Assembly: GCA_033763315.1 (NCBI GenBank)
Contig: JANRKS010000022.1
Location: 1 to 64,000 of the forward strand
Source: Deltaproteobacteria bacterium
Lineage (GTDB): Bacteria; Myxococcota_A; Polyangia; Fen-1088
Length of the DNA stretch: 64,000 nucleotides
Direction of reading: 5' to 3'
In this document: positions 40,538-55,033 of the stretch, piece by piece
How positions within the stretch are numbered: position 1 is the stretch's first letter
Layout of the letters: the number at the start of each line of letters is the position of its first letter
Made by a program: the position numbers and the translations under genes
The notes under the pieces: generated by a model
The model's database searches: none
What the model saw: the letters and a program-made list of their open reading frames with translations, nothing else
Told to the model about the DNA's origin: nothing

Positions 40538-41614
40538 CTACTGACCCGTGACCGCGAAGCAGTTGAAACCACCATAGCCGCCGCCCGCGCCCACGGTCTT
40601 TGTGCCGTTGCTGGCTTTGAGCTCAGTGTCGATGCCTTTGCCACAACCACCTGCGGGGTGATCGCTGATCCAGTGGCGACCATTGTTGTTGGAGCGAGGC
40701 CAAGCGTGACCGATCATGGGCGGAGGCAGGTTCTGGTCTGTGCTTGTCCAATCGTTGCAGGTGCTTCCCGTGCCGGCCGCGTACTTGCCGTTCTTGTCCG
40801 AGCCCGTGAGCATGTCGTGGTTGTCCACCGACATGGCGGGTCGAATCGGATCGCCGTTTTCGTCGGTGAACATGATCGCTAGCGCCGGATCACCGCCCTT
40901 GGGCCGGCCGCCCGTGGCCGTGTTGTCGGGGATCAAGTCGGCCACCGTCTTTGCGAACAGCTTGTTGTTAAAGTCGTACCAGGGGCCTTTGCCGACCCGA
41001 TCGATGGCGTTCACGGGCTGCCCATTCGGACCGGCTTTGACGCTCAAGAAGGCATGCCATGTCTTTTGATCGCCGGGGTTGGTTTTCTGGGCAAGCTTCG
41101 TGCAAATGTTGTCGGCCCCCGCTAGGCCTCCCAAGTCGCCGCCCAAGCCGTTCACCTTGTCGGTCGCAAAAGACACAATGCCAGCTTGGCTCGTGGTGAA
41201 GAAAGTGAACCAAGGACGCTTGTCAGAAGCCGCGGTGCCTCCCGCCCCTGCCGCCGATCCGGCCGCCCCTCCTCCCATGCCGCCACCCATTCCCCCAGAA
41301 CCGCCAGCCTGCATGCCGCCGCTGCTTCCCCCACCACTTCCGCCTGAGCCCGAGCCGCCCACATTGCTGCCGCCGGATCCGCCGTCCGTTTTGGCGGCAC
41401 CCCCACCGCCGCCTTTTCCTCCTGCGCTGCTGCCACCTGATTCGGTGTCTCCGCCATTGCTTTCACCGCCATTGCCGCCATTGCCTTCATCATCGCCACC
41501 ACCACCTGACGAGCAATGCAGCGCCAAGGCCGCGATGCCCCCAAGAAGAGCTAAGCGAGACGTGGGGCGCAACGCGATACCACACAAAGCCATCGAACCA
41601 TTCTTCGTTTTCAT
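40538..41614 (-). CDS. Lipoprotein with Gly-rich linker and endostatin/DUF1554-like lectin-fold domain
   Basis: GGDLGGLAGADNIC, WHAFLS, GKGPW, HDMLTGS, CNDWTS, FNCFA. Confidence 0.78.
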   Translation of the reverse strand: MKTKNGSMALCGIALRPTSRLALLGGIAALALHCSSGGGGDDEGNGGNGGESNGGDTESGGSSAGGKGGGGGAAKTDGGSGGSNVGGSGSGGSGGGSSGGMQAGGSGGMGGGMGGGAAGSAAGAGGTAASDKRPWFTFFTTSQAGIVSFATDKVNGLGGDLGGLAGADNICTKLAQKTNPGDQKTWHAFLSVKAGPNGQPVNAIDRVGKGPWYDFNNKLFAKTVADLIPDNTATGGRPKGGDPALAIMFTDENGDPIRPAMSVDNHDMLTGSDKNGKYAAGTGSTCNDWTSTDQNLPPPMIGHAWPRSNNNGRHWISDHPAGGCGKGIDTELKASNGTKTVGAGGGYGGFNCFAVTGQ

Positions 41615-41654: not shown

Positions 41655-42713
41655 TCATTTACAGACGCGACGTACGTCTTCGCAGGTCTTGCCCATGGGG
41701 CAGTCCTCGGTGGTCCGGCACGAAGTCACGCCGTCAACGGCGAGATCAAGTACGGCCTCAGCGGTGACGTTAAACTCGACGCATCCGTTACCAACCGTTT
41801 TTGATTCAACCGAACGGCGCTTCAATGTCATCGTCGGAAATCCCGAAACACCCAGGGTCGAGAGCGCATCAACCAAGGCTGCGGGTATCTCGAACGAGCC
41901 TGTGTCGGGGGCGTCGCACTCAAGTTGCTGTGAGGTGGTGCCGTGGTTGTCAAGACTCACCACCATGTACACGCGCGCGCCGGAGCTCACGAGGGGCGGC
42001 TTCCACGAAAGGGTGATAGGCAAACCCTTCTTAACGGCAGGCGTGGTGGAGGTGACCTCAAGCGGCGCGATCCCTTTCGTGCTCAATGTGAACGCGGGAT
42101 AATCGCCGCCTGACGATGACAACGTGACGTCAGCACCCTCCGTTACGCCGGGGTATGCGATCGTTTCTTTGTTCGTGTAGAACTTGGTGCCCGACGGCGT
42201 CGCCGTCAGCGCTTGGGTTAAACCTGTGAGCGTGAGGGTGCCCAAGTCCTTTTGTTTGGGGCTTGCCACACACTTGGAATCAAGCCCACACAATGGTGTG
42301 TCACCCGTGCATGCCGGTGAACATTGCCTGATTGTTTGCTTCGAGACGCGGCAGACGCCGGAGGACTGCGTGACAGAGAAGACTTCCAGTGGGTTCACAC
42401 CGTCCTTTACGCTGCCCTGAAAGATGGTAAGCGAGGTGCCGTTATCGGTTTTCATGCCAAGCTCGAATTGGCCCACTTTCGACGTAGGGTCGCACGGCCG
42501 GTAGTTCGCCTCTTGGGGCTGCGTGGCCCCGCCCGCACCTGTGGCCCCGCCCCCCCCGCTGCCGCCGGTTGCGCCCTTGCCGCCCGACCCGCCCGCGCCC
42601 TCGTCCGAGCCGCCGCAGGCCACCGCCGCCACGCAGACGAGCACCGCTACCCACAAATTGGCTATTCTGGGCCCTGTCAAAGCCGCTAAACGAGAAGAAC
42701 ATGCCGAATTCAT
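41655..42713 (-). CDS. Cys-rich hypothetical lipoprotein
   Basis: AVAC lipobox; Gly linker; disulfide-rich segments (CSPAC, CRTTEDCPMGKTC); start uncertain. Confidence 0.65.
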   Translation of the reverse strand: MNSACSSRLAALTGPRIANLWVAVLVCVAAVACGGSDEGAGGSGGKGATGGSGGGGATGAGGATQPQEANYRPCDPTSKVGQFELGMKTDNGTSLTIFQGSVKDGVNPLEVFSVTQSSGVCRVSKQTIRQCSPACTGDTPLCGLDSKCVASPKQKDLGTLTLTGLTQALTATPSGTKFYTNKETIAYPGVTEGADVTLSSSGGDYPAFTLSTKGIAPLEVTSTTPAVKKGLPITLSWKPPLVSSGARVYMVVSLDNHGTTSQQLECDAPDTGSFEIPAALVDALSTLGVSGFPTMTLKRRSVESKTVGNGCVEFNVTAEAVLDLAVDGVTSCRTTEDCPMGKTCEDVRRVCK

Positions 42714-42989
42714 TGGGTTAATCAAAGCCCGAATTGGAGCGGGACAAGGTAAAAAAGCGGGCTTTTGAGCTGAATGTGAGGCGCGAAGCATGTTTGAACC
42801 GGCAGGTTTGTGGCGCTTTGTGTGCCGATTCCGTCAAAGTTTCGCGGACGAAAGGCAACAAAAACGAATGTTTCGGCTTCGGTCACATGGCATTTGGGCA
42901 AAGCAATCCGTTACGAAAAGTGCTACGACCTCGGGCTCAATCTTTAGAAACCCACCCCCTGCTTTCGCGAAAAGCAAACGAGGAAACGC

Positions 42990-44063
42990 ATGTCCAAGAT
43001 GAAATTGAAGCCTGGCGTTTTGACGGGTTCCGCCGTCAAAGAAGTTTTCGCTTACATGAAGGAGACGCAATGCGCCCTTCCTGCGGTCAACGTCATCGGC
43101 TCGAACAGCACCACGGCCGCGTTCCAGGCCGCCAAAGAAGCCAACGCCCCCGTCATCATTCAGTACTCGAACGGCGGCGCGCAGTTCAACGCAGGCAAGG
43201 CGATGGTGAACGACAAACTTCAAGCCTGCATCGCGGGCGCCGTGGCAGGTGCCCACTACGTGCGTTCATTGTCTGAGGCCTACGGCGTTCCGGTGATCTT
43301 GCACACCGACCACGCTTCGGAAAAATTCATTCCTTGGGTGGAAGGCATGTTGGATCACAGCGAAAAGTATTTCGCCGTGAACAAAGAGCCGCTGTTCAGC
43401 TCGCACATGTTGGACCTCAGCGAAATGCCGCTCAAGGAGAATCTGGAGATCTCCGCACGCGTGCTTTCGCGGATGGCGAAGATGGGCATGCTGCTTGAGA
43501 TCGAGCTTGGCGTCACCGGCGGCGAAGAAGACGGCGTTGATAACAGCGAGATCGACAACTCGAAGCTTTACACGCAGCCCTCTGAAGTCATGGCCGCGTA
43601 CGACGCTTTGAAGCCAATCGGTGGCTTCACGGTCGCGGCCTCGTTTGGCAACACGCACGGCGTGTACAAGCCCGGCAACGTGAAGTTGCGGCCAGACATT
43701 TTGAAAAACTCACAAGACGTGATCCAAAAGGAACGCAAGACGGGCCCCAAGCCTGTTGATTTCGTGTTCCACGGTGGTTCTGGTTCATCGCCCGAAGAGA
43801 TCAAGGCCGCAGTGAGCTATGGCGTGATCAAGATGAACATCGACACAGACACGCAATGGGCGTTCTGTGAGCCGATCCGTAAATACATGGATGACAAGAA
43901 AGCTTACTTGCAGTCGCAGCTCGGCAACCCCGAAGGCGAAGACAAGCCCAATAAGAAGTACATCGATCCCCGCGGCTGGCTGTGGCTCGGCGAAAAGGGC
44001 ATGACAGCACGCCTGGTGCAGGCCTTCAAAGATCTGAACTCATTCGGCCAATTCGAGTTCTAA
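42990..44063 (+). CDS. fbaA: Class II fructose-bisphosphate aldolase
   Basis: PAVNV, HTDH, FSSHMLDLS, EIELGVTGGEEDG, FGNTHGVY, VFHGGSG, KMNIDTD. Confidence 0.97.
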   Translation: MSKMKLKPGVLTGSAVKEVFAYMKETQCALPAVNVIGSNSTTAAFQAAKEANAPVIIQYSNGGAQFNAGKAMVNDKLQACIAGAVAGAHYVRSLSEAYGVPVILHTDHASEKFIPWVEGMLDHSEKYFAVNKEPLFSSHMLDLSEMPLKENLEISARVLSRMAKMGMLLEIELGVTGGEEDGVDNSEIDNSKLYTQPSEVMAAYDALKPIGGFTVAASFGNTHGVYKPGNVKLRPDILKNSQDVIQKERKTGPKPVDFVFHGGSGSSPEEIKAAVSYGVIKMNIDTDTQWAFCEPIRKYMDDKKAYLQSQLGNPEGEDKPNKKYIDPRGWLWLGEKGMTARLVQAFKDLNSFGQFEF

Positions 44064-44083
44064 AAACGCCGCCGGCACAACAC

Positions 44084-44125
44084 AAAGGGCGCCCCCGGTT
44101 CATGCCAGGGCGCCCTTTCGTTTTT
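44084..44125 (+). terminator. Intrinsic terminator, probably bidirectional, between fbaA and the dikinase gene
   Basis: AAAGGGCGCCC (44084-44094) pairs with GGGCGCCCTTT (44108-44118), followed by CGTTTTT. Confidence 0.8.
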
Positions 44126-44130
44126 GCTGC

Positions 44131-46179
44131 TTACTGTCCGCGCCCGGGATGCGGTCGTGCTTGTTTGATCCACACCGTAGGTGTTTTTCCGCTGCCCATG
44201 TCGTCGAATTTAAACTCCACGTCCATGGCGTAAAAGCCCGCGGCCGTGCCGTAGGCGGGCCGGAAGTATTCGTGCACCTTGTCGAGCGCCCCGCCAAGCT
44301 CAAACATTTGCTCACGCGTGATCACCGTTTTACCCGAGCCCACAAGCGAGGAGTGGGCCAAATAGACCGCGGGCTGACCTGGCGAGTAATAATGATAGAT
44401 CAGTTCATCAGTCGTTGTCTTGGAACCGGGCAACACCACCGATGTTTCACCTTTTTGCACGTTGACGTAGAAGGCCGGCTCTAGGCCGGAGGTGTCAAAA
44501 GGGTTTGCCGTCAGAGCCACACCGTTGGCCTCCTCGTCCACAAACGAGACGCTGCACAGGATGGCCATGCCAACGGACTTGTGATCGATGCTGCGATATT
44601 CACGCTCTTCAAACGCGCGAAACAACCACACGCTGGCCCACGTGCTCTTCAGAGCCCTCAGAACGGGACGATCCGGATCTTCGACCTGCCCCGCGTACGA
44701 CTCATACAAACCCGCGCCTGTGAAGCCTTCAAGGTCTTCGGCGTTGGTGCTGGAACGAAACTTCATGCGCGTTCTCGGAAATTCGGTCTTTAGTTTTGCG
44801 AACAACGCTGCCTCAAACGCAGGATCAACCTTCCCCTTAATGATGTCTGCGCGAATGGCAGTCAGTTGTTTATCGCGCGTGGCGGGATCGCTTTTGAACA
44901 AAGGATCGGCCAACATCGCAGCGATCTTTGCCGAGATGCCGTTTTGATCCAGGTGCTGTTGGTAATAGAAGACGGGAATGCCAAAGGCACGGGGAACCGG
45001 AAGACCTGGAATGTGCTTTAGCGAAGAAAAGTGTGCGGCTTTGCCTCCGTAAGAAGGGATCGCCGTTTTGATGGCTTCTCGCAACGGCAAGCTCCCGTCG
45101 TTGGGCACGAGATCTTCGATGTTCTTAAGCGCGGTGACCGTCAAGTCCATGCGGGGCACGCCCACAGCGGCGGGTTTATTCGTCTCCCACCACGCGTCTG
45201 CTTCCGCCACCGGAACTTCAACAATCGTATAAGCAAAGGCCCCCACTTCCAGCTTTACCCATTTGTCCTTCAGCGCCGTAAGCGCCGGGTTGGTAACGGC
45301 TCCGCGCAAACTCATGTTTGGGGTGCGGCGGTTTTGGGAAAGCACGTTTAAATGCGACAGCGGCGTTTGGAAATCTTGCGTGATGATGCCCACCACTGTG
45401 GCGATGTCGTTCGGCACTCGATCCAGAACCACGATGTCGCGGAACGAAAGGTAAGTTTTGTGCAGATCGGCTTCCTTTACAAAACGCAACCGACCGTAAG
45501 ACGTTGCAATGTTGAGCGGTTGGTAATCGATGCCCGTAAAAAGGATCTCGTTGACCAAGAAAGGTACCTCTGGAGGCAGCGTGGCTGCGGTGGCCTCAGC
45601 GGTATCGGACGTGGGGTGAATCACTAAGTCGGTGCCGAAGTACGTTGCGGCTTTGACGGCCGCAAACAACTTGGTTTGCATGGCTGCGTTCGCCGTGTCG
45701 TAGGGAGCTAGCTCTAAGGTCCACACCTTCGCTTGATCGTAGTAGGTGACAGCCGCCAAGATGAAGCGACGATCGGGTGAGTAATATTCAGTTTGGTTGA
45801 ACGACGACAAAGGCGGCACCACGGGTTTGCCGTTGCCTGACAGAGCCATCGACGCAAATTTGTAGTGAACGGGAAACTTTGTGGTGTTCTGAAAATAAAG
45901 CTTATCGCCATCAGCTTGATCCAAAATGACTTTCATCGACCGCGCACCGGGAATGGTTGCGTCCAAAGGCGCGGCAGACAGCTGCACAAAGTCCTCGCGG
46001 CAACCGATGCGATCGAGAAAATCAGGCATGGACGCAGACGGAGCAACGCAGGCGCCTTCAGGGGCCTTGGCCACGGGGACCGCTTGTAAACCGGGGATGC
46101 TGCGTTCTGATTCACCGCCGCCGCAAGCAGCGACAACGACGAACGCAAACCAGAGCGCGCAAAGACCGTGTTTGTTCAT
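44131..46179 (-). CDS. Exported PEP/pyruvate-binding (PPDK_N ATP-grasp) dikinase-like lipoprotein with phosphohistidine domain
   Basis: VVAAC lipobox; TPLSHLNVLSQNRRTPN; YGGKAA, RSSTNAEDLEGFTGAGLYES, MDVEFK, IKQARP. Confidence 0.88.
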   Translation of the reverse strand: MNKHGLCALWFAFVVVAACGGGESERSIPGLQAVPVAKAPEGACVAPSASMPDFLDRIGCREDFVQLSAAPLDATIPGARSMKVILDQADGDKLYFQNTTKFPVHYKFASMALSGNGKPVVPPLSSFNQTEYYSPDRRFILAAVTYYDQAKVWTLELAPYDTANAAMQTKLFAAVKAATYFGTDLVIHPTSDTAEATAATLPPEVPFLVNEILFTGIDYQPLNIATSYGRLRFVKEADLHKTYLSFRDIVVLDRVPNDIATVVGIITQDFQTPLSHLNVLSQNRRTPNMSLRGAVTNPALTALKDKWVKLEVGAFAYTIVEVPVAEADAWWETNKPAAVGVPRMDLTVTALKNIEDLVPNDGSLPLREAIKTAIPSYGGKAAHFSSLKHIPGLPVPRAFGIPVFYYQQHLDQNGISAKIAAMLADPLFKSDPATRDKQLTAIRADIIKGKVDPAFEAALFAKLKTEFPRTRMKFRSSTNAEDLEGFTGAGLYESYAGQVEDPDRPVLRALKSTWASVWLFRAFEEREYRSIDHKSVGMAILCSVSFVDEEANGVALTANPFDTSGLEPAFYVNVQKGETSVVLPGSKTTTDELIYHYYSPGQPAVYLAHSSLVGSGKTVITREQMFELGGALDKVHEYFRPAYGTAAGFYAMDVEFKFDDMGSGKTPTVWIKQARPHPGRGQ

Positions 46180-46186
46180 GGAGCAC

Positions 46187-46864
46187 CTAAATGTCAAATG
46201 CATACGACAACACGAGGATGTGCAACGACGGATCGCCAACGTCCAAAAGCTTGTCTTCGTAACGATACTCGAAGCCCAAGCGGTGGTTGTTTACCTCAAA
46301 GTCCACTCCGGCCTCCAAACGATACTTATGGAAGCCCGTGCCATCTTGACCAGCAATGGCATAAAAGAGCTCGGTGCCCACGAAGGGGTCCCAGAAGCTA
46401 TCGGTGTCGTAGCCAAAAAGCAGCTCGTCGCGGAACCAATGGCGGTTGTCGGCGGAAAAATCCGAGCTGCGTTGTTCTTGGTAGCGCAGCCGATTCGAAA
46501 CCTTGAACTTGTGGCTTTTCGTTTTGACTCGGACATCGGCGTAAACGCGGTGCCATTCCACAAAGCGTTCAAAGCGGTTGCGCATCTGTAAGTAGCGGTA
46601 ACCAAGCGTTACACGCAGCCACTTCTTGATGTCGTAGTTCCCAGAGAGATCAGGCATCACATTGTCCACGCGCCACGGATCGGTGTGAAACCGGATGTGC
46701 TGATCGAAATCGAGGCGGAGGCGTTTGTTGAAGTTGTAGCGGACACCCACTTTTGTCCACAGCTCTTCGTCAGCGGCTTGCGCAGGCGACGGACGCACCA
46801 TGGGGATCAGCAACGCTGCCCAAAGACATGCAGAAGATACGAGTTTAAATGCAAGACGAAGCAT
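46187..46864 (-). CDS. DUF2490-like outer-membrane beta-barrel
   Basis: Signal peptide (AQA); TLGYRY, HR, NRLRYQ, DPF..ELFY; Arg-rich amphipathic strands. Confidence 0.8.
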   Translation of the reverse strand: MLRLAFKLVSSACLWAALLIPMVRPSPAQAADEELWTKVGVRYNFNKRLRLDFDQHIRFHTDPWRVDNVMPDLSGNYDIKKWLRVTLGYRYLQMRNRFERFVEWHRVYADVRVKTKSHKFKVSNRLRYQEQRSSDFSADNRHWFRDELLFGYDTDSFWDPFVGTELFYAIAGQDGTGFHKYRLEAGVDFEVNNHRLGFEYRYEDKLLDVGDPSLHILVLSYAFDI

Positions 46865-46872
46865 GTAAAACT

Positions 46873-47478
46873 TTACGGGCGATGAAAAACAGTGAGGTGA
46901 ACGGTATCCCGCAACAGATCGATCTGCCCCACGGAAACGCGATGAATTTTGAGACCCGTGCGCGCGTGTAAATCGGCAATCAGCTCTGTGCGTTTCTCCG
47001 GCCGAAGCAGATCCAGTTTGTCGTAAAGCACCAATTGCTCGTCTTCAATTCCACCAAACGAGGCCCGTTCAAGAATCACGATGGCCAGCACCGTGATCAC
47101 GTTGACGAACAAAAGTTCAGACACGCTGATCTTCTTGTTCGATAGGCCATTCCAAATGCCTACGCCAATCAGCACGAACAGATAGGTCAGATCGCGGCTG
47201 CGCATGGCTTCGGTACGGTAGCGTAAGATGCCGAACACCGCGAAAAGGCCCAGAGCAAACCCCAGTTCGATGGGCACCTTGCGCAGCAACGTGCAGATGA
47301 ACAGGGTGACCAAGTTCAACATATAGAACACGAAGACGTATTCGCGCCGTCGGTACATCGGGTAATACACGCCCCGGATGACAACCGTGGCCACGAGCAA
47401 ATCGAGGATCAGACGCGTCAGCAGCTTTCCAAAATCTTCGGCATCTAGGAACGCACTCGCACCAAACAATTCAAGCAT
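46873..47478 (-). CDS. DUF4956 membrane protein
   Basis: GFALGLFAVFGILRYRT and DLTYLF; several TM segments plus soluble C-terminal domain. Confidence 0.9.
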   Translation of the reverse strand: MLELFGASAFLDAEDFGKLLTRLILDLLVATVVIRGVYYPMYRRREYVFVFYMLNLVTLFICTLLRKVPIELGFALGLFAVFGILRYRTEAMRSRDLTYLFVLIGVGIWNGLSNKKISVSELLFVNVITVLAIVILERASFGGIEDEQLVLYDKLDLLRPEKRTELIADLHARTGLKIHRVSVGQIDLLRDTVHLTVFHRP

Positions 47479-48238
47479 GCACAAGCCTTTCAATCATTCG
47501 CACAGCCGGACGGAAGGCGTTTACTCGGGTCGCCAATCCCAAAAACGCCACACCGAGAGAGTATTTGCTGAAAGATCGCGCGCGCGCCGATACATCGTGC
47601 AGGGCCTCAGTGAAAGGCGTGCGGCTAAGCGCGTTGGCTTGTTTGATCTCGGTGACCACAAGACGCGATAAATCTTTGCTTACGCTTCCGACCGCAAACG
47701 ACAAAAATATGTCCGAGGTGACGCGTTCACCCAGCACGGGATCAAGCAACGTCAACCGCAAAAAGTTGGTGCCCAGCAGCGGACGCAACGCAGCCGGATC
47801 AAGTTGCGTGTGTTTGCGGATGAAGTTGTAATTGGAAGCCGCAATGGCGTCTTGGCCAAACGTAATCTGTTTCCGTTCCTTCAGGGTCTCGCCCCGGTTT
47901 GTCTTTTGTTTCACTTCGAGATACGAGACTTGGCGATCAGGATAGTGCCGAATGCGCACTTTGAAGCGCGGCCGCTTGCCCCGCGCGTGCTGCATGAACA
48001 TGAACATATCGGGTGTATCGAAATACACGGTCTGGTAGGTGGCTAACGGGCGGCCGGCGGTGGGGAGCACTCGGTACTTCCCCTTCACTTGCTCAAGGAC
48101 CTGCTCCAGTTGTTTGTCACGAAGCACAAACTTTCGGTCGAAGCGGCGCTGCAAGGCCGTGGCCTCAACGTCGGCCCAGGAGGCGGCGGGGAAAGCCGAC
48201 AACAAGACCTCGTCACTGAGATATTGGGGAACGTTCAC
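47471..48238 (-). CDS. VTC-domain polyphosphate polymerase
   Basis: RFDRKF, TVYFDT, RFKVRIRHY, LEVKQK, ERVTSD, EIKQ, FSKY; GTG start after GGGAG. Confidence 0.92.
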   Translation of the reverse strand: MNVPQYLSDEVLLSAFPAASWADVEATALQRRFDRKFVLRDKQLEQVLEQVKGKYRVLPTAGRPLATYQTVYFDTPDMFMFMQHARGKRPRFKVRIRHYPDRQVSYLEVKQKTNRGETLKERKQITFGQDAIAASNYNFIRKHTQLDPAALRPLLGTNFLRLTLLDPVLGERVTSDIFLSFAVGSVSKDLSRLVVTEIKQANALSRTPFTEALHDVSARARSFSKYSLGVAFLGLATRVNAFRPAVRMIERLVHA

Positions 48239-48416
48239 TGCAGATCTCCCAAGGCGCAGCCGCGATGCCAACCGCCGAGCTGAAAGACTAACCTATTGCG
48301 ACGATGAAGTGACAATCGAGTAAATTTTCCGTCAATGCGGTATGTGGGCGGCAGGGCCCCACTTCATCAGCTTTTTTCACGATTTTGTGAGACTCCAGTC
48401 GCACAAAGGCACGGCC

Positions 48417-49601
48417 CTACGGGGCAAGCCAGCGGAACAGTTCTGTGTTTTCGATGGCGGCGGGAAACTGCGCGGCCCCCACCCCCGCCGCGAACAACGG
48501 CACCGGCGCGGCGGTGTGCCAGGTCTCCGCGAAGCTGTGGCGGGGCAGAACGCCCGCCTGGGGTGGCTCGTCGGCCAAAGACAGGCCGCCCGTTTCGTGA
48601 TCGGCCGTGACCACAATCAAGGTGTCACCACGGCCCGCTTGCCATGCAAGTGCGGCCGCCACCGCGCGATCGAGCTCGAGAACCGACGCCACCACATGCT
48701 GCAAATCGTGGGCATGCGCAGCCGTATCGGTGCCTTCATTTTCGACCAGCAAGAAGAACCCCACGGGGTTGCGTGAAAGGAAGCTGATGGCCGTGGCCGC
48801 GACGCCCGAAAGCGCAGGGGGCGTGCTTTCATAGAGCCAGGCAAGCTTGACGGTGCCGGGCATGGGTAACTCCGTTGGAGCTTCGGTGATTGCGGTATAT
48901 CCGGCGGCCGCCGCCACCACGTTGTCAGCATTGACGACGGCCTCGGCGGCCAAAAAATCGGGCCTCACCACGTCGAACAGATCGTGCGCGATGCCATCGT
49001 AGGCATAACGAGAGCTCTGGTGCGCGATGAACGCGGCTGGCGTGGCATCCACGATCGGCGTCTCACGCGTCACAAGGCCGGTGGCCGCACCCAAGGCCTT
49101 CCGCAGCTCAAGCGCCGTGGGCAACGGCGCTCCTCCACCAGGAAGCTGTAAGCCAAGAACTTCATTTTGCACTTTTCTGCCGGTGGCGAACGCTGTGGCC
49201 CCCGCCGCGGAATCGGTGATGCCACCCAAGGCATTGCGGGTAAACATGCGCCCCTTCGTGGGCAAGGTTTCCATCGTCAGGGGCGCAGTGTTGCCATTGG
49301 CAAAGCGACGGGCCGCCTCCACCTGCGCGAAGCCCATGCCATCGCCAATGAACAGAATCACATTGCGCGCGAACGGGGGGCGAGGGGCGGCACGGCGCAG
49401 GTCAGCGGCGAAGGCAGCGTCGTTGGCGCCGGGCCAGCCGCCATCCTCAGCCACACCCGCAGGCGTGCGCGCGTCGGCGCCCAGACCCAGACGCGGTTCA
49501 CGAAACGAATGATCGCCTTCATGGCACGCGGCCAAGCCGGAAAGCACAAGCAGAACGGAAGGCAAAACAACAACGCTTCTCACCTGCAACCGCGTGAACA
49601 T
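48417..49601 (-). CDS. phoA: Alkaline phosphatase (PhoA family) lipoprotein
   Basis: LAAC lipobox; FIGDGMG, TDSAAGATA, ATPAAF.AH, TADHETGG, HTAAPVP. Confidence 0.9.
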   Translation of the reverse strand: MFTRLQVRSVVVLPSVLLVLSGLAACHEGDHSFREPRLGLGADARTPAGVAEDGGWPGANDAAFAADLRRAAPRPPFARNVILFIGDGMGFAQVEAARRFANGNTAPLTMETLPTKGRMFTRNALGGITDSAAGATAFATGRKVQNEVLGLQLPGGGAPLPTALELRKALGAATGLVTRETPIVDATPAAFIAHQSSRYAYDGIAHDLFDVVRPDFLAAEAVVNADNVVAAAAGYTAITEAPTELPMPGTVKLAWLYESTPPALSGVAATAISFLSRNPVGFFLLVENEGTDTAAHAHDLQHVVASVLELDRAVAAALAWQAGRGDTLIVVTADHETGGLSLADEPPQAGVLPRHSFAETWHTAAPVPLFAAGVGAAQFPAAIENTELFRWLAP

Positions 49602-49621
49602 GCAGCGATTATAGACTCGCT

Positions 49622-52600
49622 TTAGGTCAACAGGGTGGCAAGACGTTTCACCACGTCGGCGGCGTCGGGCGCGGTCGAGGCGGCCACACGCATGGTTTCC
49701 TCAGCAAGCGGTTGCGGTAGGACCTCTTTGAGCAACGCCCACGCGGCCTCACACCGGCGTTTGGCTGAAGCGGCGTCTGGCGCAAACGCGGCCAGTTCTG
49801 ACAACGCCGCGTAGATTTCGGAAGCAGCGGGCCACACGGGCGGAGCGATCTTCGCCGCCAAGACGGCATCGCCAGCCGCGGCGCTGGCCAAACACAAGAT
49901 GAGGCTCAACTGCTCCGCCTGTGCCGCTTCCCGGCCTTCTTCGTTGGCTTGCAGATCAGCAGCGACGCCGGCCACATCTAACACTTCGCCGCGTTGCCAA
50001 TAAAACGGCACCAGCCGGACCAAAGCCGGAGCGAAAGTGGGATCCATATCGGCCGAGCGCAAGTAGGCGTCCATCGCGCCCGTGGACTCCTGCAATGAAA
50101 CGCGCCGCAACTCGCCTTCACGGAACAACGCGCGCGCGCGCTCACGGGGCAACGTGTAAAGCCGTGACAATCGGTTCCACAAGGACGCCGCCGATACGTG
50201 ATCGCCCAGCATCTCTGCCGCCTGGGTCAACCGCTGCAAGGCCGTCAAACGTGTGGGTTCAAGACGCGTGGCTTCTTCAAGGTAGGTGCGCGCGGCAGCC
50301 GCGTTGTCCAGCGCGAGCAAGCATTCGCCCATGCGCTCACAAAGCGCGACCCGGCGGCCCACCGCCTCAGCCGGCAAACTCTGCAGCACGGGCGCGAGAA
50401 GCTTGACCACTTCAGCGTGGTCTTCGCGCAGGTAAGCAAATTCAGCCAAGGCTTCGCTCGCACCTGCATGCGTGGGCTCAAGCTCAAGCACCTTGCGGTA
50501 GTTCGCCTCGGCGGCCGCCTCGTCGCCAAACATTTCGGCCAGCTCGGCGCGGCGGAACGCCAACAACACGGGTTCGATCACGCCTGTGTGATCAGGCTTT
50601 TCACTGAGCGCTTCGTACGCGCGCCGTGCCTCAGCCCAATCTTGCAAGCGGTAAGACAGCTCGGCAAAAGCGCCAAGCGCACCAACGTGGTTCGGATCCG
50701 CAGCCAGCGCTTCATCAAGATCAGCCACCGCGGCGTCCAAAGCTTTTTGGCTGACGGCAAAAGCCGCACGCGCCACAAGCCAACCCGCACGTATCGGCGC
50801 AGGCACAGGTTCAGCCAACGCGCGCGCAAAACGCTCTTCGGCGGCCGCATGATCATCTTGTGTGATCGCGTGTTGAGCGAGCTTGAGCCACAGGCGGCCC
50901 TTGACCGTGGGCTCAAGTTCACTGGGCGGCGCCAGCAGAGCGGCGATCTTATCTTCATGGCCGCTGACGTCACCCAGCGCTTCATAGAGCGCGGCCAACT
51001 GTTGTGCCGCGGCGGCGTCCACGGGTCCGCGTTCTGCCAAACGTTCAAGTAAGGGCAACGGCCCAAGGCCGCCGGGCAAACCTAGATCCGCCAGCTGTAG
51101 GAAGGCATCGCGATCCGCCGCGGTAAGCGCACCATCCACGCCTGCGGCACCAGGCGCCAAACGCGCTGAAGCTTCTGCCAAAACCGCAGCCACATCACTT
51201 TCGTTGCCCACCTTGCGAGCCAACTCCGCGCGCAGAGCCAGACCCGCGACGGGCAACGTGGGCAAAGGCCAGCCCTGCAAGACAGCATAGGCCGCGGGCA
51301 CCCCGGCCTCCCCCTCAAGGCGCGCGCGCGCACGTTCAACCACCAACGCAGGCTCTTCGATGGCCGGCGCCAGTGGCGCGAGTTCAACAGCGGAGCCGGG
51401 AGCGTTCACAAAGTCAGACGCCGTTTCGTTGTCGGGCGTCGGTGTTGACGAATGCGCTTCGGTTGACGAGGGCTCGATCAAACCAGCGCGGGCCAGCACT
51501 TCGTCGGCCTGCTGCCATGCGCCCCGTGCCAACAACAAACGCCCTAAACTATCGCCCGCCTCTTTGAGTACGGCCGGTGATTGCATCAGCGCGCGCAACA
51601 TGTCTTCGGCACGTTCAACGTCTTTGCCCGAACGCCACAACGCGCGCGCAATTTCAAGCTTGAGCACCAAGGGATCGGGCTCGCGTGGTTCGGTGGAATC
51701 GCTTTGCTGTTCGCTCACCGCAAGCAAGCGTTCGAGCGTCAAAAGCAGTTCGTCAAAACGCGATTCGCGCCGGCACAGTTCAATCAGCCGCTTTTGTGTT
51801 TCAAGATCCTCGGGCGCCGCGACCAAGCGGCGACGATACACCGCCAAGGCTTCATCTGAACGGCCCAACCGCTCAAGCGCGCGTGCATAGGCCATTTCAA
51901 TTTCGTGCTGCTCGGGTGACAGTGGCGCCGCCAACTCAAGACGCCCGGCCAACGCCTTGACCAGCGCTTCTGCGAATCCAGCGGAATCAAGCCCGTCAAC
52001 AAGCAGCGCCAAATCGGCGCCGTGGGGCTCTTGCGCCAGCGCGCGTTCAAGATGTGCCTCGGCGTCCGCGAGGGAGCCGGTCAAGCGATCCCAACGCGAC
52101 AAGCGCAAGTGTGCGTTCGCCTTGTCTCGGCTCGACACCAGACCACGGCCATCAGGGCGGCCCGCAACACGCAGCAAGCGTTCAGAAATTGTGGCGGCTT
52201 CGTCGAGGCGGCCTTCATCCCACGCGCGCGCCGCCCCCCACAACAATGACGGCACGTGCTCGGCGTCGACTTCAAGCGCGCGTGCGTAGGCGGCGTCGGC
52301 TTGCGCCGGATCCGCCAAATGTTGAGCGTAAACCCAACCGAGTTTTGCAAAAGCATCGCGGCGCTCAGCAAGGCGCGTGTTGGCGGCATGCGCCTGCAAA
52401 GTTCGCGCAACCAATTCCCATTCGCCACGCGCTTCGTAGGCCTCTTGCAGCGCGCGCCACGCTTCGCCGCGCGAAGGATCCCGTTCCGATGCCGACTGCC
52501 AGGCGGCCAGCGCCGCGTCCTTGGATTCGGCTTGCTCGAACAGCTTTGCGGCCGCGATCCAAACCTCGGCAACACGTTCACTCTCGTTCGAACCTGCGCG

Positions 52601-55033
52601 GGGCGTGCCGGCTTGTTCGATTGACTGCACCAGCGCCTTCGCCGCAGCCGAAGGCTTGCCTTGTGCCGACCACAACTGCGACGACCGCTGGCCGAGCTCC
52701 AAACACACGTCAAATGCGGCCGCGCCCTCGAGACCTTTCTCGAACGCGGCGAGCGCCGCTTCGTCATCGCCTTGCGCTTCGGCCAAGCGGCCTCGCATCA
52801 AAGCAAGCTCACCGTGCAAGGGTCCGGCGGCGCCCGTGGTGGAGCTGAGGTAACCCTCGATGATGCGCACCAAATCGGCGGCCACGGCGGCGTGTTGCTC
52901 GGCGGGGCCGGCGGTTTCGGCCAACCACTCTTCGGCCCACGCGATCGCGGCGCGCGCGCCGGCGTTGGTGCCCGTGGCGGACGCGGTGGCCAAAGCGCGC
53001 GTCACGAAATCGGATTGGCCCGCACGATCCGCCACGTCACGGGCGCGCCCCAACACGGCGGCGAAGATCACGGGATCGGTGATGCGCTCCAGGGCGCGTT
53101 CGAAGCGAACCAGCACGTCGCCAAGATCTTCAGCTGCCGCTTGGGCGGCCAATTCGTCCAACGCGCCAAGATGGGCCGGATTGCTGCGCAACACATCGTC
53201 AAGCGCCACGCGGCCTCGCGCCTTATCGCCAAGCACGCGGCCCAACAAACCTGCGCGCTCTACGTCTAGATCAAGCTTATCATCGCCTTCGGACACAGCG
53301 CTTGCGGACGCGAGCAACTGGGCGGCTTCTTCGCCACGCCCCAGGCGCGACAGCACACGCGCGCGCTGCTGCAGCCATGCAACGGCGCCGGGTTGCAACG
53401 TAAGTGCCTGGGCCCAATGCGCTTCAGCGGCCGCGTCCACGCCCGCTGATTCTTCACACTGCGCAAGCGCCGCCAGCGCTTCGGCTTGTGAGTCGGTGGC
53501 GCGCATGGCAGCGAACAAAGCCACCGCTTTTTCAAGGGCAAGCCTGGCGCCGTCATGGTTGCGTGAAGCTTTGCGCGCGCGGCCCAAGCCGAGCCACGCC
53601 GGCGCCAACATTTCATCAAGCACCACGGCCTCGGCAAAACGTTCGGCGGCCTTATCAACTTGCCCAAGCTCATCGAACAACACTTGACCCGCGTCGCACA
53701 GAAGCTTCGCGCGTGCGACGGGGCTGGGCTCTTCGAGCTCGCGGCGCCGCAACAACGCAAGCCACTCACTCCAGCGCTTTTGCACGCCGAAAATGCGGCG
53801 CAGAACGTCCAGCGCACGCGGGTGCCCGGGCCGCGCCACGCGCACCGATTCGAGCAAGCCCAACGCGCGCTCGGTTTGCCCCGCCTCCAAGTAAGCTTCG
53901 GCAGCGGCGGTGAGCGCCGTGGCCGCTTCCAAGCTGGGCAAGGCTTCGCCGGCTTGGGCCAATTGTTCGTAAAGTTCGGCAGCTTCTGCGGAACGCCCCT
54001 GGGCCAATGCCGAAACGGCGCGCGCCAACAAAGCGGGCGCGAAACCGGGCATGCGCGCCAACAGCGCACTGGCCAGCTCTTCAGCTTCACGCAGCGATTG
54101 GGGCGTGATGCACAGCAGTTGCAGCAAACGCGTGGCGACGAAAACGTTGCCCGAGTGAAGCGTCGCCGCACGACGGTAAAGCGCCAGCGCCGCGGCCACA
54201 TCACCTGTGGCCAAATGCGATTCCGCCTCGGCAAACAAGCTGCGGCCTTCTTCATACGCGGCACGCCCGCCTGAGTGGGTGGATGACGAGCCGAACGAAA
54301 ACTCGTCGTCGTCGTCCGCGGCGCGCGTCAACGGTGCAAACCGCAACAACACGCGGTCCCCACCATGTCCAAGCGGCAGCAAACCCAAGCCGCCACGCCC
54401 AGGCATGCGCCAGCCGCGCATCGGAAACAGATCCAGCAGCGCCAACTCAAGCGGCTCGACCACCACTTCGGTGGGCCCTTGCAGGTACGCAAACGGCGGC
54501 CGATCCGCAGGACCGTGATCAAGAATGGATCCACACACGGCTTTGAGCAGCGCTGTGATCACCTGCGGCGCACCGATGGGCAAAAAGCCGTGTAAACGCA
54601 GATCGTAAACCGCCACGCGCAAACGCCGCGGCTGCAGAACGCGGAAATAACCGGCCGCCAGCAGCTCGGCGCCGTGGCTGCCCACCTCAACGCGCGCTTG
54701 CAGCGTGAACCCATCAGGTCCCATCTCGACGATCGGCCGCAAGATGCCAACCTGAGCCAGCGGTGCGCGCGCCAAAAGCCGCACAACATCGTTGGCACTT
54801 AACGAAAGCGTAAGCTGGTTTAGCTGGCAGCGGCGGTTGGCAAAGCGGGTCGAGCCGCCCGACAAATCAAAAGGAAAGCGCAGGTTGGGCACTGTCATCG
54901 CCAGCGCGTCCACACGCCCTACATGCGACAGGCCGAATGACGTGAGCGAAAGCTGCCCCTGCCCGCTTTCGATTTGAACCACGAGAGGAAGCGCGTTTCG
55001 TGCCGCCGCCGGGGCCTCTGGACGCGCGGTCAC
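49622..55033 (-). CDS. Giant TPR-repeat protein (1803 aa) with non-TPR N-terminal domain
   Basis: Many A...Y..AL...P.H..A TPR motifs; N-terminal VPNLRFPFDLSGG domain. Confidence 0.85.
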   Translation of the reverse strand: MTARPEAPAAARNALPLVVQIESGQGQLSLTSFGLSHVGRVDALAMTVPNLRFPFDLSGGSTRFANRRCQLNQLTLSLSANDVVRLLARAPLAQVGILRPIVEMGPDGFTLQARVEVGSHGAELLAAGYFRVLQPRRLRVAVYDLRLHGFLPIGAPQVITALLKAVCGSILDHGPADRPPFAYLQGPTEVVVEPLELALLDLFPMRGWRMPGRGGLGLLPLGHGGDRVLLRFAPLTRAADDDDEFSFGSSSTHSGGRAAYEEGRSLFAEAESHLATGDVAAALALYRRAATLHSGNVFVATRLLQLLCITPQSLREAEELASALLARMPGFAPALLARAVSALAQGRSAEAAELYEQLAQAGEALPSLEAATALTAAAEAYLEAGQTERALGLLESVRVARPGHPRALDVLRRIFGVQKRWSEWLALLRRRELEEPSPVARAKLLCDAGQVLFDELGQVDKAAERFAEAVVLDEMLAPAWLGLGRARKASRNHDGARLALEKAVALFAAMRATDSQAEALAALAQCEESAGVDAAAEAHWAQALTLQPGAVAWLQQRARVLSRLGRGEEAAQLLASASAVSEGDDKLDLDVERAGLLGRVLGDKARGRVALDDVLRSNPAHLGALDELAAQAAAEDLGDVLVRFERALERITDPVIFAAVLGRARDVADRAGQSDFVTRALATASATGTNAGARAAIAWAEEWLAETAGPAEQHAAVAADLVRIIEGYLSSTTGAAGPLHGELALMRGRLAEAQGDDEAALAAFEKGLEGAAAFDVCLELGQRSSQLWSAQGKPSAAAKALVQSIEQAGTPRAGSNESERVAEVWIAAAKLFEQAESKDAALAAWQSASERDPSRGEAWRALQEAYEARGEWELVARTLQAHAANTRLAERRDAFAKLGWVYAQHLADPAQADAAYARALEVDAEHVPSLLWGAARAWDEGRLDEAATISERLLRVAGRPDGRGLVSSRDKANAHLRLSRWDRLTGSLADAEAHLERALAQEPHGADLALLVDGLDSAGFAEALVKALAGRLELAAPLSPEQHEIEMAYARALERLGRSDEALAVYRRRLVAAPEDLETQKRLIELCRRESRFDELLLTLERLLAVSEQQSDSTEPREPDPLVLKLEIARALWRSGKDVERAEDMLRALMQSPAVLKEAGDSLGRLLLARGAWQQADEVLARAGLIEPSSTEAHSSTPTPDNETASDFVNAPGSAVELAPLAPAIEEPALVVERARARLEGEAGVPAAYAVLQGWPLPTLPVAGLALRAELARKVGNESDVAAVLAEASARLAPGAAGVDGALTAADRDAFLQLADLGLPGGLGPLPLLERLAERGPVDAAAAQQLAALYEALGDVSGHEDKIAALLAPPSELEPTVKGRLWLKLAQHAITQDDHAAAEERFARALAEPVPAPIRAGWLVARAAFAVSQKALDAAVADLDEALAADPNHVGALGAFAELSYRLQDWAEARRAYEALSEKPDHTGVIEPVLLAFRRAELAEMFGDEAAAEANYRKVLELEPTHAGASEALAEFAYLREDHAEVVKLLAPVLQSLPAEAVGRRVALCERMGECLLALDNAAAARTYLEEATRLEPTRLTALQRLTQAAEMLGDHVSAASLWNRLSRLYTLPRERARALFREGELRRVSLQESTGAMDAYLRSADMDPTFAPALVRLVPFYWQRGEVLDVAGVAADLQANEEGREAAQAEQLSLILCLASAAAGDAVLAAKIAPPVWPAASEIYAALSELAAFAPDAASAKRRCEAAWALLKEVLPQPLAEETMRVAASTAPDAADVVKRLATLLT

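Follow-up and report, generated by a model that had tools for sequence, protein, structure and literature searches.

It is an open problem, first raised by the CotH kinases, how enzymes in need of an energy-rich phosphate donor can function outside the cytoplasm, where ATP is scarce. The problem is raised again by a four-gene cluster in the window analysed here, a stretch of 64,000 nucleotides (nt) from a Deltaproteobacteria bacterium (GenBank assembly GCA_033763315.1, contig JANRKS010000022.1, positions 1 to 64,000). Its products are a protein with a VTC domain, a membrane protein of the DUF4956 family, a predicted outer-membrane barrel (DUF2490) and a lipoprotein that carries a dikinase-type domain. 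An earlier note on this DNA had proposed that the first two make and export polyphosphate, that the barrel lets polyphosphate or a substrate through the outer membrane, and that the lipoprotein would use polyphosphate as its phosphoryl donor. The reading tentatively favoured here, at somewhat short of an even chance, is that the cluster represents a variant of the VTC-DUF4956 envelope cassette, with a dikinase bearing a histidine swivel domain (His-swivel dikinase) as its exported partner instead of CotH. What is new is the exported dikinase as a partner of VTC-DUF4956; the cassette itself is widespread.

Organization of the cluster

The four genes of the cluster are as follows.

47471-48238, minus strand: VTC-domain (Vtc4-like triphosphate-tunnel) protein, 255 amino acids (aa), predicted cytoplasmic (PF09359, 7.1e-20)
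46873-47478, minus strand: DUF4956 predicted inner-membrane protein, 201 aa (PF16316, 1.3e-48)
46187-46864, minus strand: DUF2490 predicted outer-membrane beta-barrel, 225 aa, with a signal peptide (PF10677, 2.1e-22; weak OMP_b-brl match)
44131-46179, minus strand: lipoprotein dikinase P0001, 682 aa (PF01326 PPDK_N, 1.3e-25, residues 376-677 only)

The VTC and DUF4956 genes, which are read as translationally coupled, overlap by 8 nt, with the VTC stop codon and the DUF4956 ATG both lying within ATGCTTGA, while gaps of 8 nt and 7 nt precede the ATG codons of the DUF2490 and dikinase genes, respectively. Shine-Dalgarno-like sequences are found ahead of the GTG of the VTC gene at 48238 (GGGAGA) and the ATG of the dikinase gene at 46179 (AGGTG). 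The description of four packed, co-oriented genes given in the earlier note is borne out by these open reading frames (ORFs), their Pfam matches and their spacing. The compartments that it had assigned to the products (a cytoplasmic VTC protein, an inner-membrane DUF4956 protein, a DUF2490 barrel and a lipoprotein) are supported by the Pfam matches, the lipobox of the dikinase and the predicted hydrophobic segments, of which VTC has none, DUF4956 has four to five, and DUF2490, the dikinase and a PhoA-like protein encoded upstream each have an N-terminal one only. The same four-gene order, VTC-DUF4956-DUF2490-dikinase, was found again in two other loci (L001, which is also L082, and L081), and the arrangement is therefore not a product of chance. 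A promoter and terminator scan of positions 43900-49800 gave matches at background level only and defines no operon limits.

The lipoprotein is a predicted complete dikinase

As Pfam detects the ATP-grasp part of the lipoprotein only, the label of dikinase could not be derived from Pfam alone, and the remainder of the protein was assessed from structural models and by aligning the sequences of 54 relatives (50-59% identity). The following parts were distinguished, all on the minus strand.

46123-46179: signal peptide with the lipobox VVAAC (residues 15-19), read from the sequence
45535-46047: N-terminal domain, residues 45-215, well modelled, with a fold that has no clear PDB match
45175-45534: predicted swivel phosphohistidine-type domain, approximately residues 216-335, with the codon of His276 at 45352-45354 (Foldseek and conservation)
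44134-45087: ATP-grasp nucleotide-binding domain, approximately residues 365-682 (PF01326 and alignment to phosphoenolpyruvate (PEP) synthase and rifampin phosphotransferase (RPH))

A full-length AlphaFold model was obtained with a predicted local distance difference test (pLDDT) score of 86.3, and its best Foldseek matches were RPH (5hv1, 6e-16), PEP synthase (2ols) and pyruvate phosphate dikinase (PPDK, 1kbl), all by way of the ATP-grasp domain. A separate model of residues 45-350 (pLDDT 90.5) again matched 5hv1, over approximately 106 columns with a root-mean-square deviation of 2.6-3.5, in a part that we take to be the His swivel domain of RPH. It also matched pyruvate kinase (3t05/2e28), presumably in the C-terminal PEP-utiliser domain, the N-terminal domain of Enzyme I (1zym) and the phosphoryl-carrier domain of PPDK (2fm4). 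Because the model matches these RPH, pyruvate kinase, Enzyme I and PPDK carrier folds, residues 216-335 are read as a swivel phosphohistidine-type domain, an assignment made by predicted fold and by conservation. Ten residues around the putative phosphohistidine are invariant in the 54 sequences (Q271, T272, L274, H276, N278, L280, R284, T286, P287 and N288). No PEP-utiliser model (PF00391) was detected by Pfam in residues 181-356, even at E<=10.

Within the ATP-grasp domain, K380, R475, S494, D653, E655, Q673 and R675 are invariant in the same alignment. The first three align with Lys22, Arg117 and Thr136 of RPH, which are shown by mutation to be needed to hold the phosphates of ATP, according to the accessible part of that report (PMC4844700). 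A degenerate ATP-grasp pseudoenzyme was considered and rejected, as all catalytic positions checked are invariant. The N-terminal domain has its own invariant set (C60, D63, K83, D87, H105, R137 and R138) and a near-invariant C44. No clear PDB match was found for it by Foldseek, nor an acceptor domain of known type, and it is regarded as a candidate acceptor-binding domain. Neither a PEP/pyruvate-binding TIM barrel nor a rifampin-binding domain was found in the protein by Pfam or NCBIfam, and its NCBIfam scores lie far under the cut-off of every family (e.g., 75.9 against 598 bits). The domain order, with the N-terminal domain followed by the His domain and then the ATP-grasp, is the reverse of that in PEP synthase. 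Taken beyond Pfam, the swivel fold, the invariant His276 and the ATP-grasp residues bear out the identification as a dikinase, and the lipoprotein is, as modelled, a complete dikinase-type enzyme whose ATP-grasp retains both its phosphate-binding and its metal-binding residues.

Export of the dikinase and its family

The dikinase of the window begins with MNKHGLCALWFAFVVVAAC, which contains the lipobox. Among 80 relatives, a lipobox-like signal was recognized in 54 by a strict script; of the 26 that failed it, 24 have a lipobox-type N-terminus by manual reading, in the form of a hydrophobic stretch that closes with a small residue followed by Cys, with the remaining two being cut by contig ends. 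The N-terminal domain also carries a Cys pair (C44 and C60) that is conserved in the alignment of 54 sequences. By structure (Atlas), the same N-terminal domain was found in PPDK_N clusters of four phyla. Of the clusters sharing both domains, one from the Myxococcota has a lamin-tail domain (LTD) in 73% of its members, one from the Bacteroidota has a type IX secretion system (T9SS) tail in 23%, and one from the Planctomycetota has EF-hands in 55%. The proposal that the dikinase is exported thus stands, with a lipobox conserved in nearly all of the 80 relatives and a cytoplasmic location not favoured.

At E<=1e-10, 2091 relatives were found among 8000 scored candidates, and by sequence the dikinase belongs to a large exported family of the Myxococcota. 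No paper on such a family was found in literature searches. It should also be noted that the genome of the window encodes a second dikinase paralogue on another contig (C7; L171:9648-12656), which is 1002 aa long, 34% identical and has an extra N-terminal lamin-tail domain. This paralogue adjoins a multi-Kazal-domain protein and has no VTC or DUF4956 gene nearby.

The VTC, DUF4956 and DUF2490 proteins

The VTC protein matches PF09359 with 72 bits (cut-off 23) over profile positions 2-234 of 235. A single-sequence search of the PDB with this protein gave chance matches only, and a profile was required; one built from 17 bacterial VTC sequences matched the catalytic domains of Vtc2 (3g3o, 2.8e-6) and Vtc4 (3g3q, 1.8e-5). 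The charged residues of the tunnel strands are invariant in these 17 sequences (R91, K93, R95, R97, E108, K110, R161, R172, T174, D176, E197, K199, S224 and K225), as are the aligned motifs R-x-R, E-x-K, R-x-T-x-D, E-x-K and S-K. Neither an SPX domain nor a Vtc1-type membrane partner was detected by Pfam, and the 255-aa protein consists of the VTC domain alone.

The four to five hydrophobic segments of the DUF4956 protein are followed by a soluble tail of approximately 60 aa, and no other Pfam family, MgtC included, was detected in it even at E<=10. It is the sole copy in the 7.6-Mb genome. A complex prediction for VTC and DUF4956 gave a score of 0.00 in a run without controls, which counts neither for nor against binding. 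In the DUF2490 protein, the N-terminal hydrophobic segment ends in AQA. The earlier description of this barrel as arginine-rich holds for its composition (22 Arg of 225 residues), but the mature protein is approximately neutral (net charge about -1, isoelectric point 6.8).

Linkage of the dikinase to VTC and DUF4956

A survey of gene neighbourhoods was made from both sides. For the dikinase, 294 relatives were found in a collection of species genomes and the best 80 loci, nearly all from the Myxococcota, were kept; their neighbours were clustered, hidden Markov models (HMMs) were built from the clusters and matches were counted within 8 kb. These HMM surveys replaced a plain tblastn survey, whose counts of linkage were too low, since divergent subfamilies of VTC and DUF4956 escaped it. 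Of the 17 DUF4956 matches in these loci, 16 score at least 80 bits. Some HMM matches with low scores may be false positives of stop-to-stop ORFs in GC-rich DNA. The counts for the dikinase loci were as follows.

c1, an unnamed lipoprotein, beside the dikinase: 65/80 loci
c3, a DUF1554-like lipoprotein, beside the dikinase: 44/80 loci
SGL propeller protein, in place of c3: 18/80 loci
DUF4956 within 8 kb of the dikinase: 17/80 loci
VTC within 8 kb of the dikinase: 13/80 loci
HlyD adaptor within 8 kb of the dikinase: 11/80 loci
DUF2490 beside the dikinase: 4/80 loci

From the other side, 87 loci with a DUF4956 gene of the window type (45-62% identity) were collected from the Myxococcota, Bacteroidota, Acidobacteriota and others. 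They overlap with the 80 dikinase loci in two contigs (L082, which is L001, and L146, which is L045), and some pairs come from one metagenome-assembled genome. The HMMs were made from Myxococcota rows, and CotH and DUF2490 may for that reason be undercounted in the Bacteroidota loci. The counts for these loci were as follows.

VTC directly upstream of or adjacent to DUF4956: 81/87 loci
DUF2490 after DUF4956: 45/87 loci
CotH within 8 kb of DUF4956: 27/87 loci
Dikinase within 8 kb of DUF4956: 16/87 loci
CotH and dikinase both: 0/87 loci

The neighbourhood core of the dikinase family is the dikinase with c1 and either c3 or the propeller protein, and VTC is a minority companion. As DUF4956 is a low-copy gene (one copy here and mostly one to two matches per genome), its presence near the dikinase in approximately one fifth of the loci is far above chance. 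DUF4956 and the dikinase lie on one strand in 30 of the 32 linked loci, with the dikinase often directly after DUF4956, and the linkage was seen in three different locus types. In ten loci of the Kofleriaceae/Haliangiales type, c1 and c3 are divergent from a following VTC-DUF4956-dikinase series that lacks DUF2490. In a dikinase tree of 94 rows (with L081, which has a partial dikinase, L082 and L146 left out), no fewer than 14 changes are required to explain the linked state, and well-supported branches force 10 of these. A tree of VTC and DUF4956 from 77 loci, which was limited to rows whose DUF4956 segment had 150 aa or more and whose VTC segment had 180 aa or more, placed the dikinase-linked loci at four to five separate positions among the CotH-linked ones. 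Both trees were made with FastTree and carry local support only. The linkage of the dikinase to VTC/DUF4956 is thus recurrent and re-assorted, but not obligate; of the conservation at issue in the earlier note, the recurrence stands (17/80 and 16/87 loci, at several tree positions) and an obligate association does not. In the Bacteroidota VTC-DUF4956 loci that were fetched, no dikinase was found within 8 kb in any.

The earlier note had further suggested that the exported dikinase fills the slot of CotH, and that a survey of VTC-DUF4956 loci could tell whether the two are interchangeable. The survey shows them as alternatives in window-type loci, none of the 87 holding both, and the genome of the window has no CotH. 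In the dikinase-anchored set, however, eight of the 80 loci hold the two together, and CotH and the dikinase therefore do not simply occupy one slot. The suggestion is retained for the window-type loci and abandoned for the HlyD-type loci, where the two do co-occur.

The HlyD-type arrangement was seen in five Sorangium/Polyangium loci (L038, L039, L054, L063 and L071), where c1, c3 and the dikinase are followed by a divergent DUF4956, with a long HlyD-like protein either fused to it or next to it. In four of them CotH is encoded a few kb further on, and none was found in L063. In another locus (L002:7188-10022), the gene immediately upstream of the dikinase encodes DUF2490 and is itself preceded by c3 and c1, while neither VTC nor DUF4956 is present within 8 kb. 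This arrangement suggests that the barrel may be linked to the dikinase and not to VTC alone.

Co-occurrence at the genome level

A total of 201 Myxococcota genomes were surveyed, with the dikinase scored by a profile of its N-terminal and His domains. The dikinase profile was detected in 81 of these genomes, DUF4956 in 103 and CotH in 111. DUF4956 was present in 69 of the 81 genomes with the dikinase, compared to 34 of the 120 genomes without it. Among the 103 genomes with DUF4956, CotH was found in 95 and the dikinase in 69; 65 have both and four have neither, leaving 99 with at least one. Four DUF4956 genomes have the dikinase only, including the genome of the window, in which (at 90.85% completeness) no match to CotH (PF08757) was obtained, and genome G119, in which the dikinase lies approximately 2 kb from DUF4956 on one contig. 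In one locus type the dikinase stands in for CotH, and in the genome of the window no other candidate client of VTC/DUF4956 was found. The four genomes with DUF4956 and neither CotH nor the dikinase (G012, G097, G102 and G197) may have a client of some third kind or no client at all.

Proposed mechanism and alternative explanations

Under the favoured reading, the VTC protein would make an energy-rich phosphate compound from cytoplasmic ATP, most likely polyphosphate, and DUF4956 would move this product, or its phosphoryl groups, over the inner membrane. The dikinase would be a client of VTC/DUF4956 and would load His276 at its ATP-grasp site from the exported compound, after which the swivel domain would carry the phosphate to an acceptor held by the N-terminal domain, possibly with the involvement of c1 and c3. 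This acceptor would be a glycan or a protein, located in the envelope or outside the cell. DUF2490 would be an optional outer-membrane component, and the PhoA-like lipoprotein may recycle phosphate. The parts of this reading differ in strength. A functional coupling of the dikinase to VTC/DUF4956, like that of CotH in other loci, is considered slightly more probable than its absence. Polyphosphate is plausible as the carried species, its export being nevertheless doubtful and its passage through DUF2490 conjectural; that it loads His276 directly is speculative and improbable. A still bolder extension, to which even less credence is given, is a general bacterial scheme in which polyphosphate delivered by VTC/DUF4956 powers both CotH and His-swivel dikinases outside the cytoplasm, with His276 loaded directly and an envelope or extracellular polymer phosphorylated in the way that starch is by the glucan water dikinases (GWD) of plants.

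Two unrelated families of exported phosphotransferases are found beside one VTC-DUF4956 pair; of the comparative arguments to date that this pair serves phosphoryl transfer outside the cytoplasm, this is an independent one and the strongest. As dikinases form a covalent phosphohistidine, the dikinase would also be a cleaner object with which to tell apart ATP, pyrophosphate and polyphosphate as donors.

A number of observations weigh against the favoured reading. The dikinase is accompanied most steadily by c1 and c3 and not by VTC, and linkage is the minority state, 63 of the 80 dikinase loci having no DUF4956 within 8 kb. The eight dikinase loci that also hold CotH are mostly of the Sorangium type with DUF4956 and HlyD. 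At the genome level, 12 of the 81 genomes with a dikinase show no DUF4956, and five dikinase genomes that were searched again with a broader profile (93-99% complete) have neither VTC nor DUF4956; four of these five carry very close orthologues of the dikinase. Since both genes are missing from these five, the dikinase family can work without VTC. The surveyed genomes are moreover related, so that any odds ratios or significance values computed from them are overstated. The residues that hold the alpha, beta and gamma phosphates when a nucleotide is bound are intact and would, by sequence, fit ATP better than a bare polyphosphate chain, or at least as well. The DUF2490 protein of the window is not net basic, its relatives having a median net charge of +9 (n=43). 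For Streptococcus intermedius, the polymerase-domain gene SIR_1593 is given no phenotype in the accessible part of the report on the neighbouring genes (PMC12345266), and literature searches returned no paper with a tested activity for a bacterial VTC, DUF4956 or exported dikinase.

The alternative that survives best, and is a real if lesser possibility, is that the genes are independent neighbours. Together with c1, c3 or the SGL propeller, the dikinase would then act on a substrate in the envelope or outside the cell and draw ATP from another source, e.g., lysed prey, vesicles or leakage. VTC-DUF4956-DUF2490 would be a separate phosphate or polyphosphate system, and the two would lie close because both consist of envelope and phosphate genes with a common regulation, e.g., under phosphate limitation. 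This would agree with the excess of c1 and c3 over DUF4956 in the dikinase loci, the five genomes lacking VTC and DUF4956, the paralogue on contig C7, the retained nucleotide-phosphate residues and the PhoA-like gene that adjoins VTC in the window, L001/L082 and L081. It accounts less well for a low-copy DUF4956 within 8 kb of the dikinase so far above chance, for a linkage that arose or persisted at many tree positions and in three locus types, for the shared strand with the dikinase often directly after DUF4956, and for the mutual exclusion of the dikinase and CotH in window-type loci.

It is unlikely, to a degree well below that of independent neighbours, that VTC/DUF4956 supplies ATP or another nucleotide polyphosphate, or is a regulator or anchor like the MgtC-like proteins, with the dikinase and CotH both being nucleotide users. 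Both have nucleotide-binding folds, the dikinase retains its ATP-phosphate residues, and the DUF4956-type protein of S. intermedius is described, in the part of the source available, as having an MgtC-like domain in the membrane and an ACT domain in the cytoplasm (PMC12345266). On the other hand, the DUF4956 protein of the window has no MgtC match in Pfam, a transporter-like family is not present, and the VTC protein retains the tunnel residues of Vtc4 and Vtc2. The chemistry of the Vtc4/Vtc2 type is polyphosphate synthesis.

Less likely again is a dikinase that scavenges phosphate, or runs in reverse, on extracellular nucleotides or phosphorylated polymers beside PhoA, or that is a binding protein without turnover. 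The adjacent PhoA-like lipoprotein, the partial reactions of PPDK, which are reversible, and the failure to find an acceptor domain of known type would all agree with such a role; the invariance of all catalytic positions examined argues for a working enzyme, however, and the conserved N-terminal domain and the partner lipoproteins suggest a defined substrate. A cytoplasmic dikinase with a lipoprotein signal created by a wrong start-codon call, for which it could be said that the characterised relatives (PEP synthase, PPDK and RPH) are to our knowledge all cytoplasmic, was rejected as very improbable on the lipobox-type N-terminus of nearly all 80 relatives, the AGGTG ahead of the ATG at 46179, the conserved Cys pair, the relatives with T9SS tails and LTD domains, and the neighbouring c1 and c3, which are lipoproteins as well.

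Comparison with known systems

In plant GWD, a substrate-binding N-terminus is followed by a His domain and a C-terminal nucleotide-binding domain. In the dikinase the His domain (216-335) is followed by the ATP-grasp (365-682), an order that would resemble that of GWD/PWD; it differs in being bacterial and exported and in having no starch- or carbohydrate-binding module by Pfam. With RPH, PEP synthase and PPDK it shares the ATP-grasp, the swivel phosphohistidine domain and equivalent phosphate-binding residues. Unlike these enzymes, it has the His domain first, an N-terminal domain in place of the PEP/pyruvate or rifampin domain, and a lipoprotein signal for export.

With regard to CotH, both are exported or surface phosphotransferases that need an energy-rich donor where ATP is scarce, and both have VTC/DUF4956 neighbours, with or without DUF2490. 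They differ in that CotH is a direct kinase and the dikinase a phospho-enzyme, their folds are unrelated, and some loci contain the two. Compared with VTC/DUF4956/CotH loci, the cluster of the window has the His-swivel ATP-grasp dikinase, whose fold is unrelated to that of CotH, together with a DUF2490 barrel and more lipoproteins. In the accessible parts of the respective reports, cotH, a polyphosphate-polymerase gene and DUF4956 are described as neighbours in Gram-positive Pel loci (10.1101/768473), Pel levels and aggregation are reduced in S. intermedius mutants of SIR_1592 (a membrane protein) and SIR_1594 (CotH-like) (PMC12345266), and DUF4956 and DUF2490 genes are adjacent in Bacteroides thetaiotaomicron (PMC10434189). 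The cluster of the window resembles SIR_1592-1594 in that a VTC-domain protein and a DUF4956 protein are encoded with an exported phosphotransferase. Literature searches on exported dikinases, bacterial polyphosphate export, DUF4956 and DUF2490 returned gene-neighbourhood mentions only.

For the yeast VTC complex, polyphosphate synthesis is coupled to translocation, as stated in the part of the source available (PMC10657179). The likeness to this complex (3g3q, 3g3o, 8i6v and 7ytj) consists of the profile match to the catalytic domain, the tunnel charges and a co-encoded membrane protein. It differs in that the protein of the window is without an SPX domain and without a Vtc1-type domain, and its partner is DUF4956.

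Neighbouring genes

The genes flanking the cluster are as follows.

48417-49601, minus strand: PhoA-like alkaline phosphatase lipoprotein, 178 nt upstream of VTC (PF00245, 1.6e-49)
42990-44063, plus strand: class II fructose-bisphosphate aldolase (PF01116, 1.4e-78)
41655-42791, minus strand: c1 lipoprotein of no named family (matches 46 members of cluster c1)
40538-41614, minus strand: c3 DUF1554-like lipoprotein (matches 25 members of cluster c3; weak PF07588)

The c1 and c3 genes of the window lie on the strand of the dikinase, 1.3 kb downstream and past the plus-strand aldolase gene, which sits between them and the dikinase; elsewhere c1 and c3 are mostly directly adjacent to it. No Pfam or NCBIfam family was found for c1, and its relatives in the Atlas are unnamed Myxococcota clusters only.

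Among the fetched loci, a PhoA-like homologue adjoins VTC only in the window, L001/L082 and L081. The gene is co-directional with VTC in the window and divergent from it in the other loci, and it is possibly co-regulated with the cluster. A short ATCGTCGC stretch upstream of VTC is common to the window (48298-48315, minus strand) and the two loci closest to it, L001:2670-2690 and L081:7205-7225; it is too short for a Pho box to be claimed. Directly upstream of the PhoA-like gene and on the same strand, a giant TPR-repeat protein of 1803 aa is encoded at 49622-55033 (minus strand).

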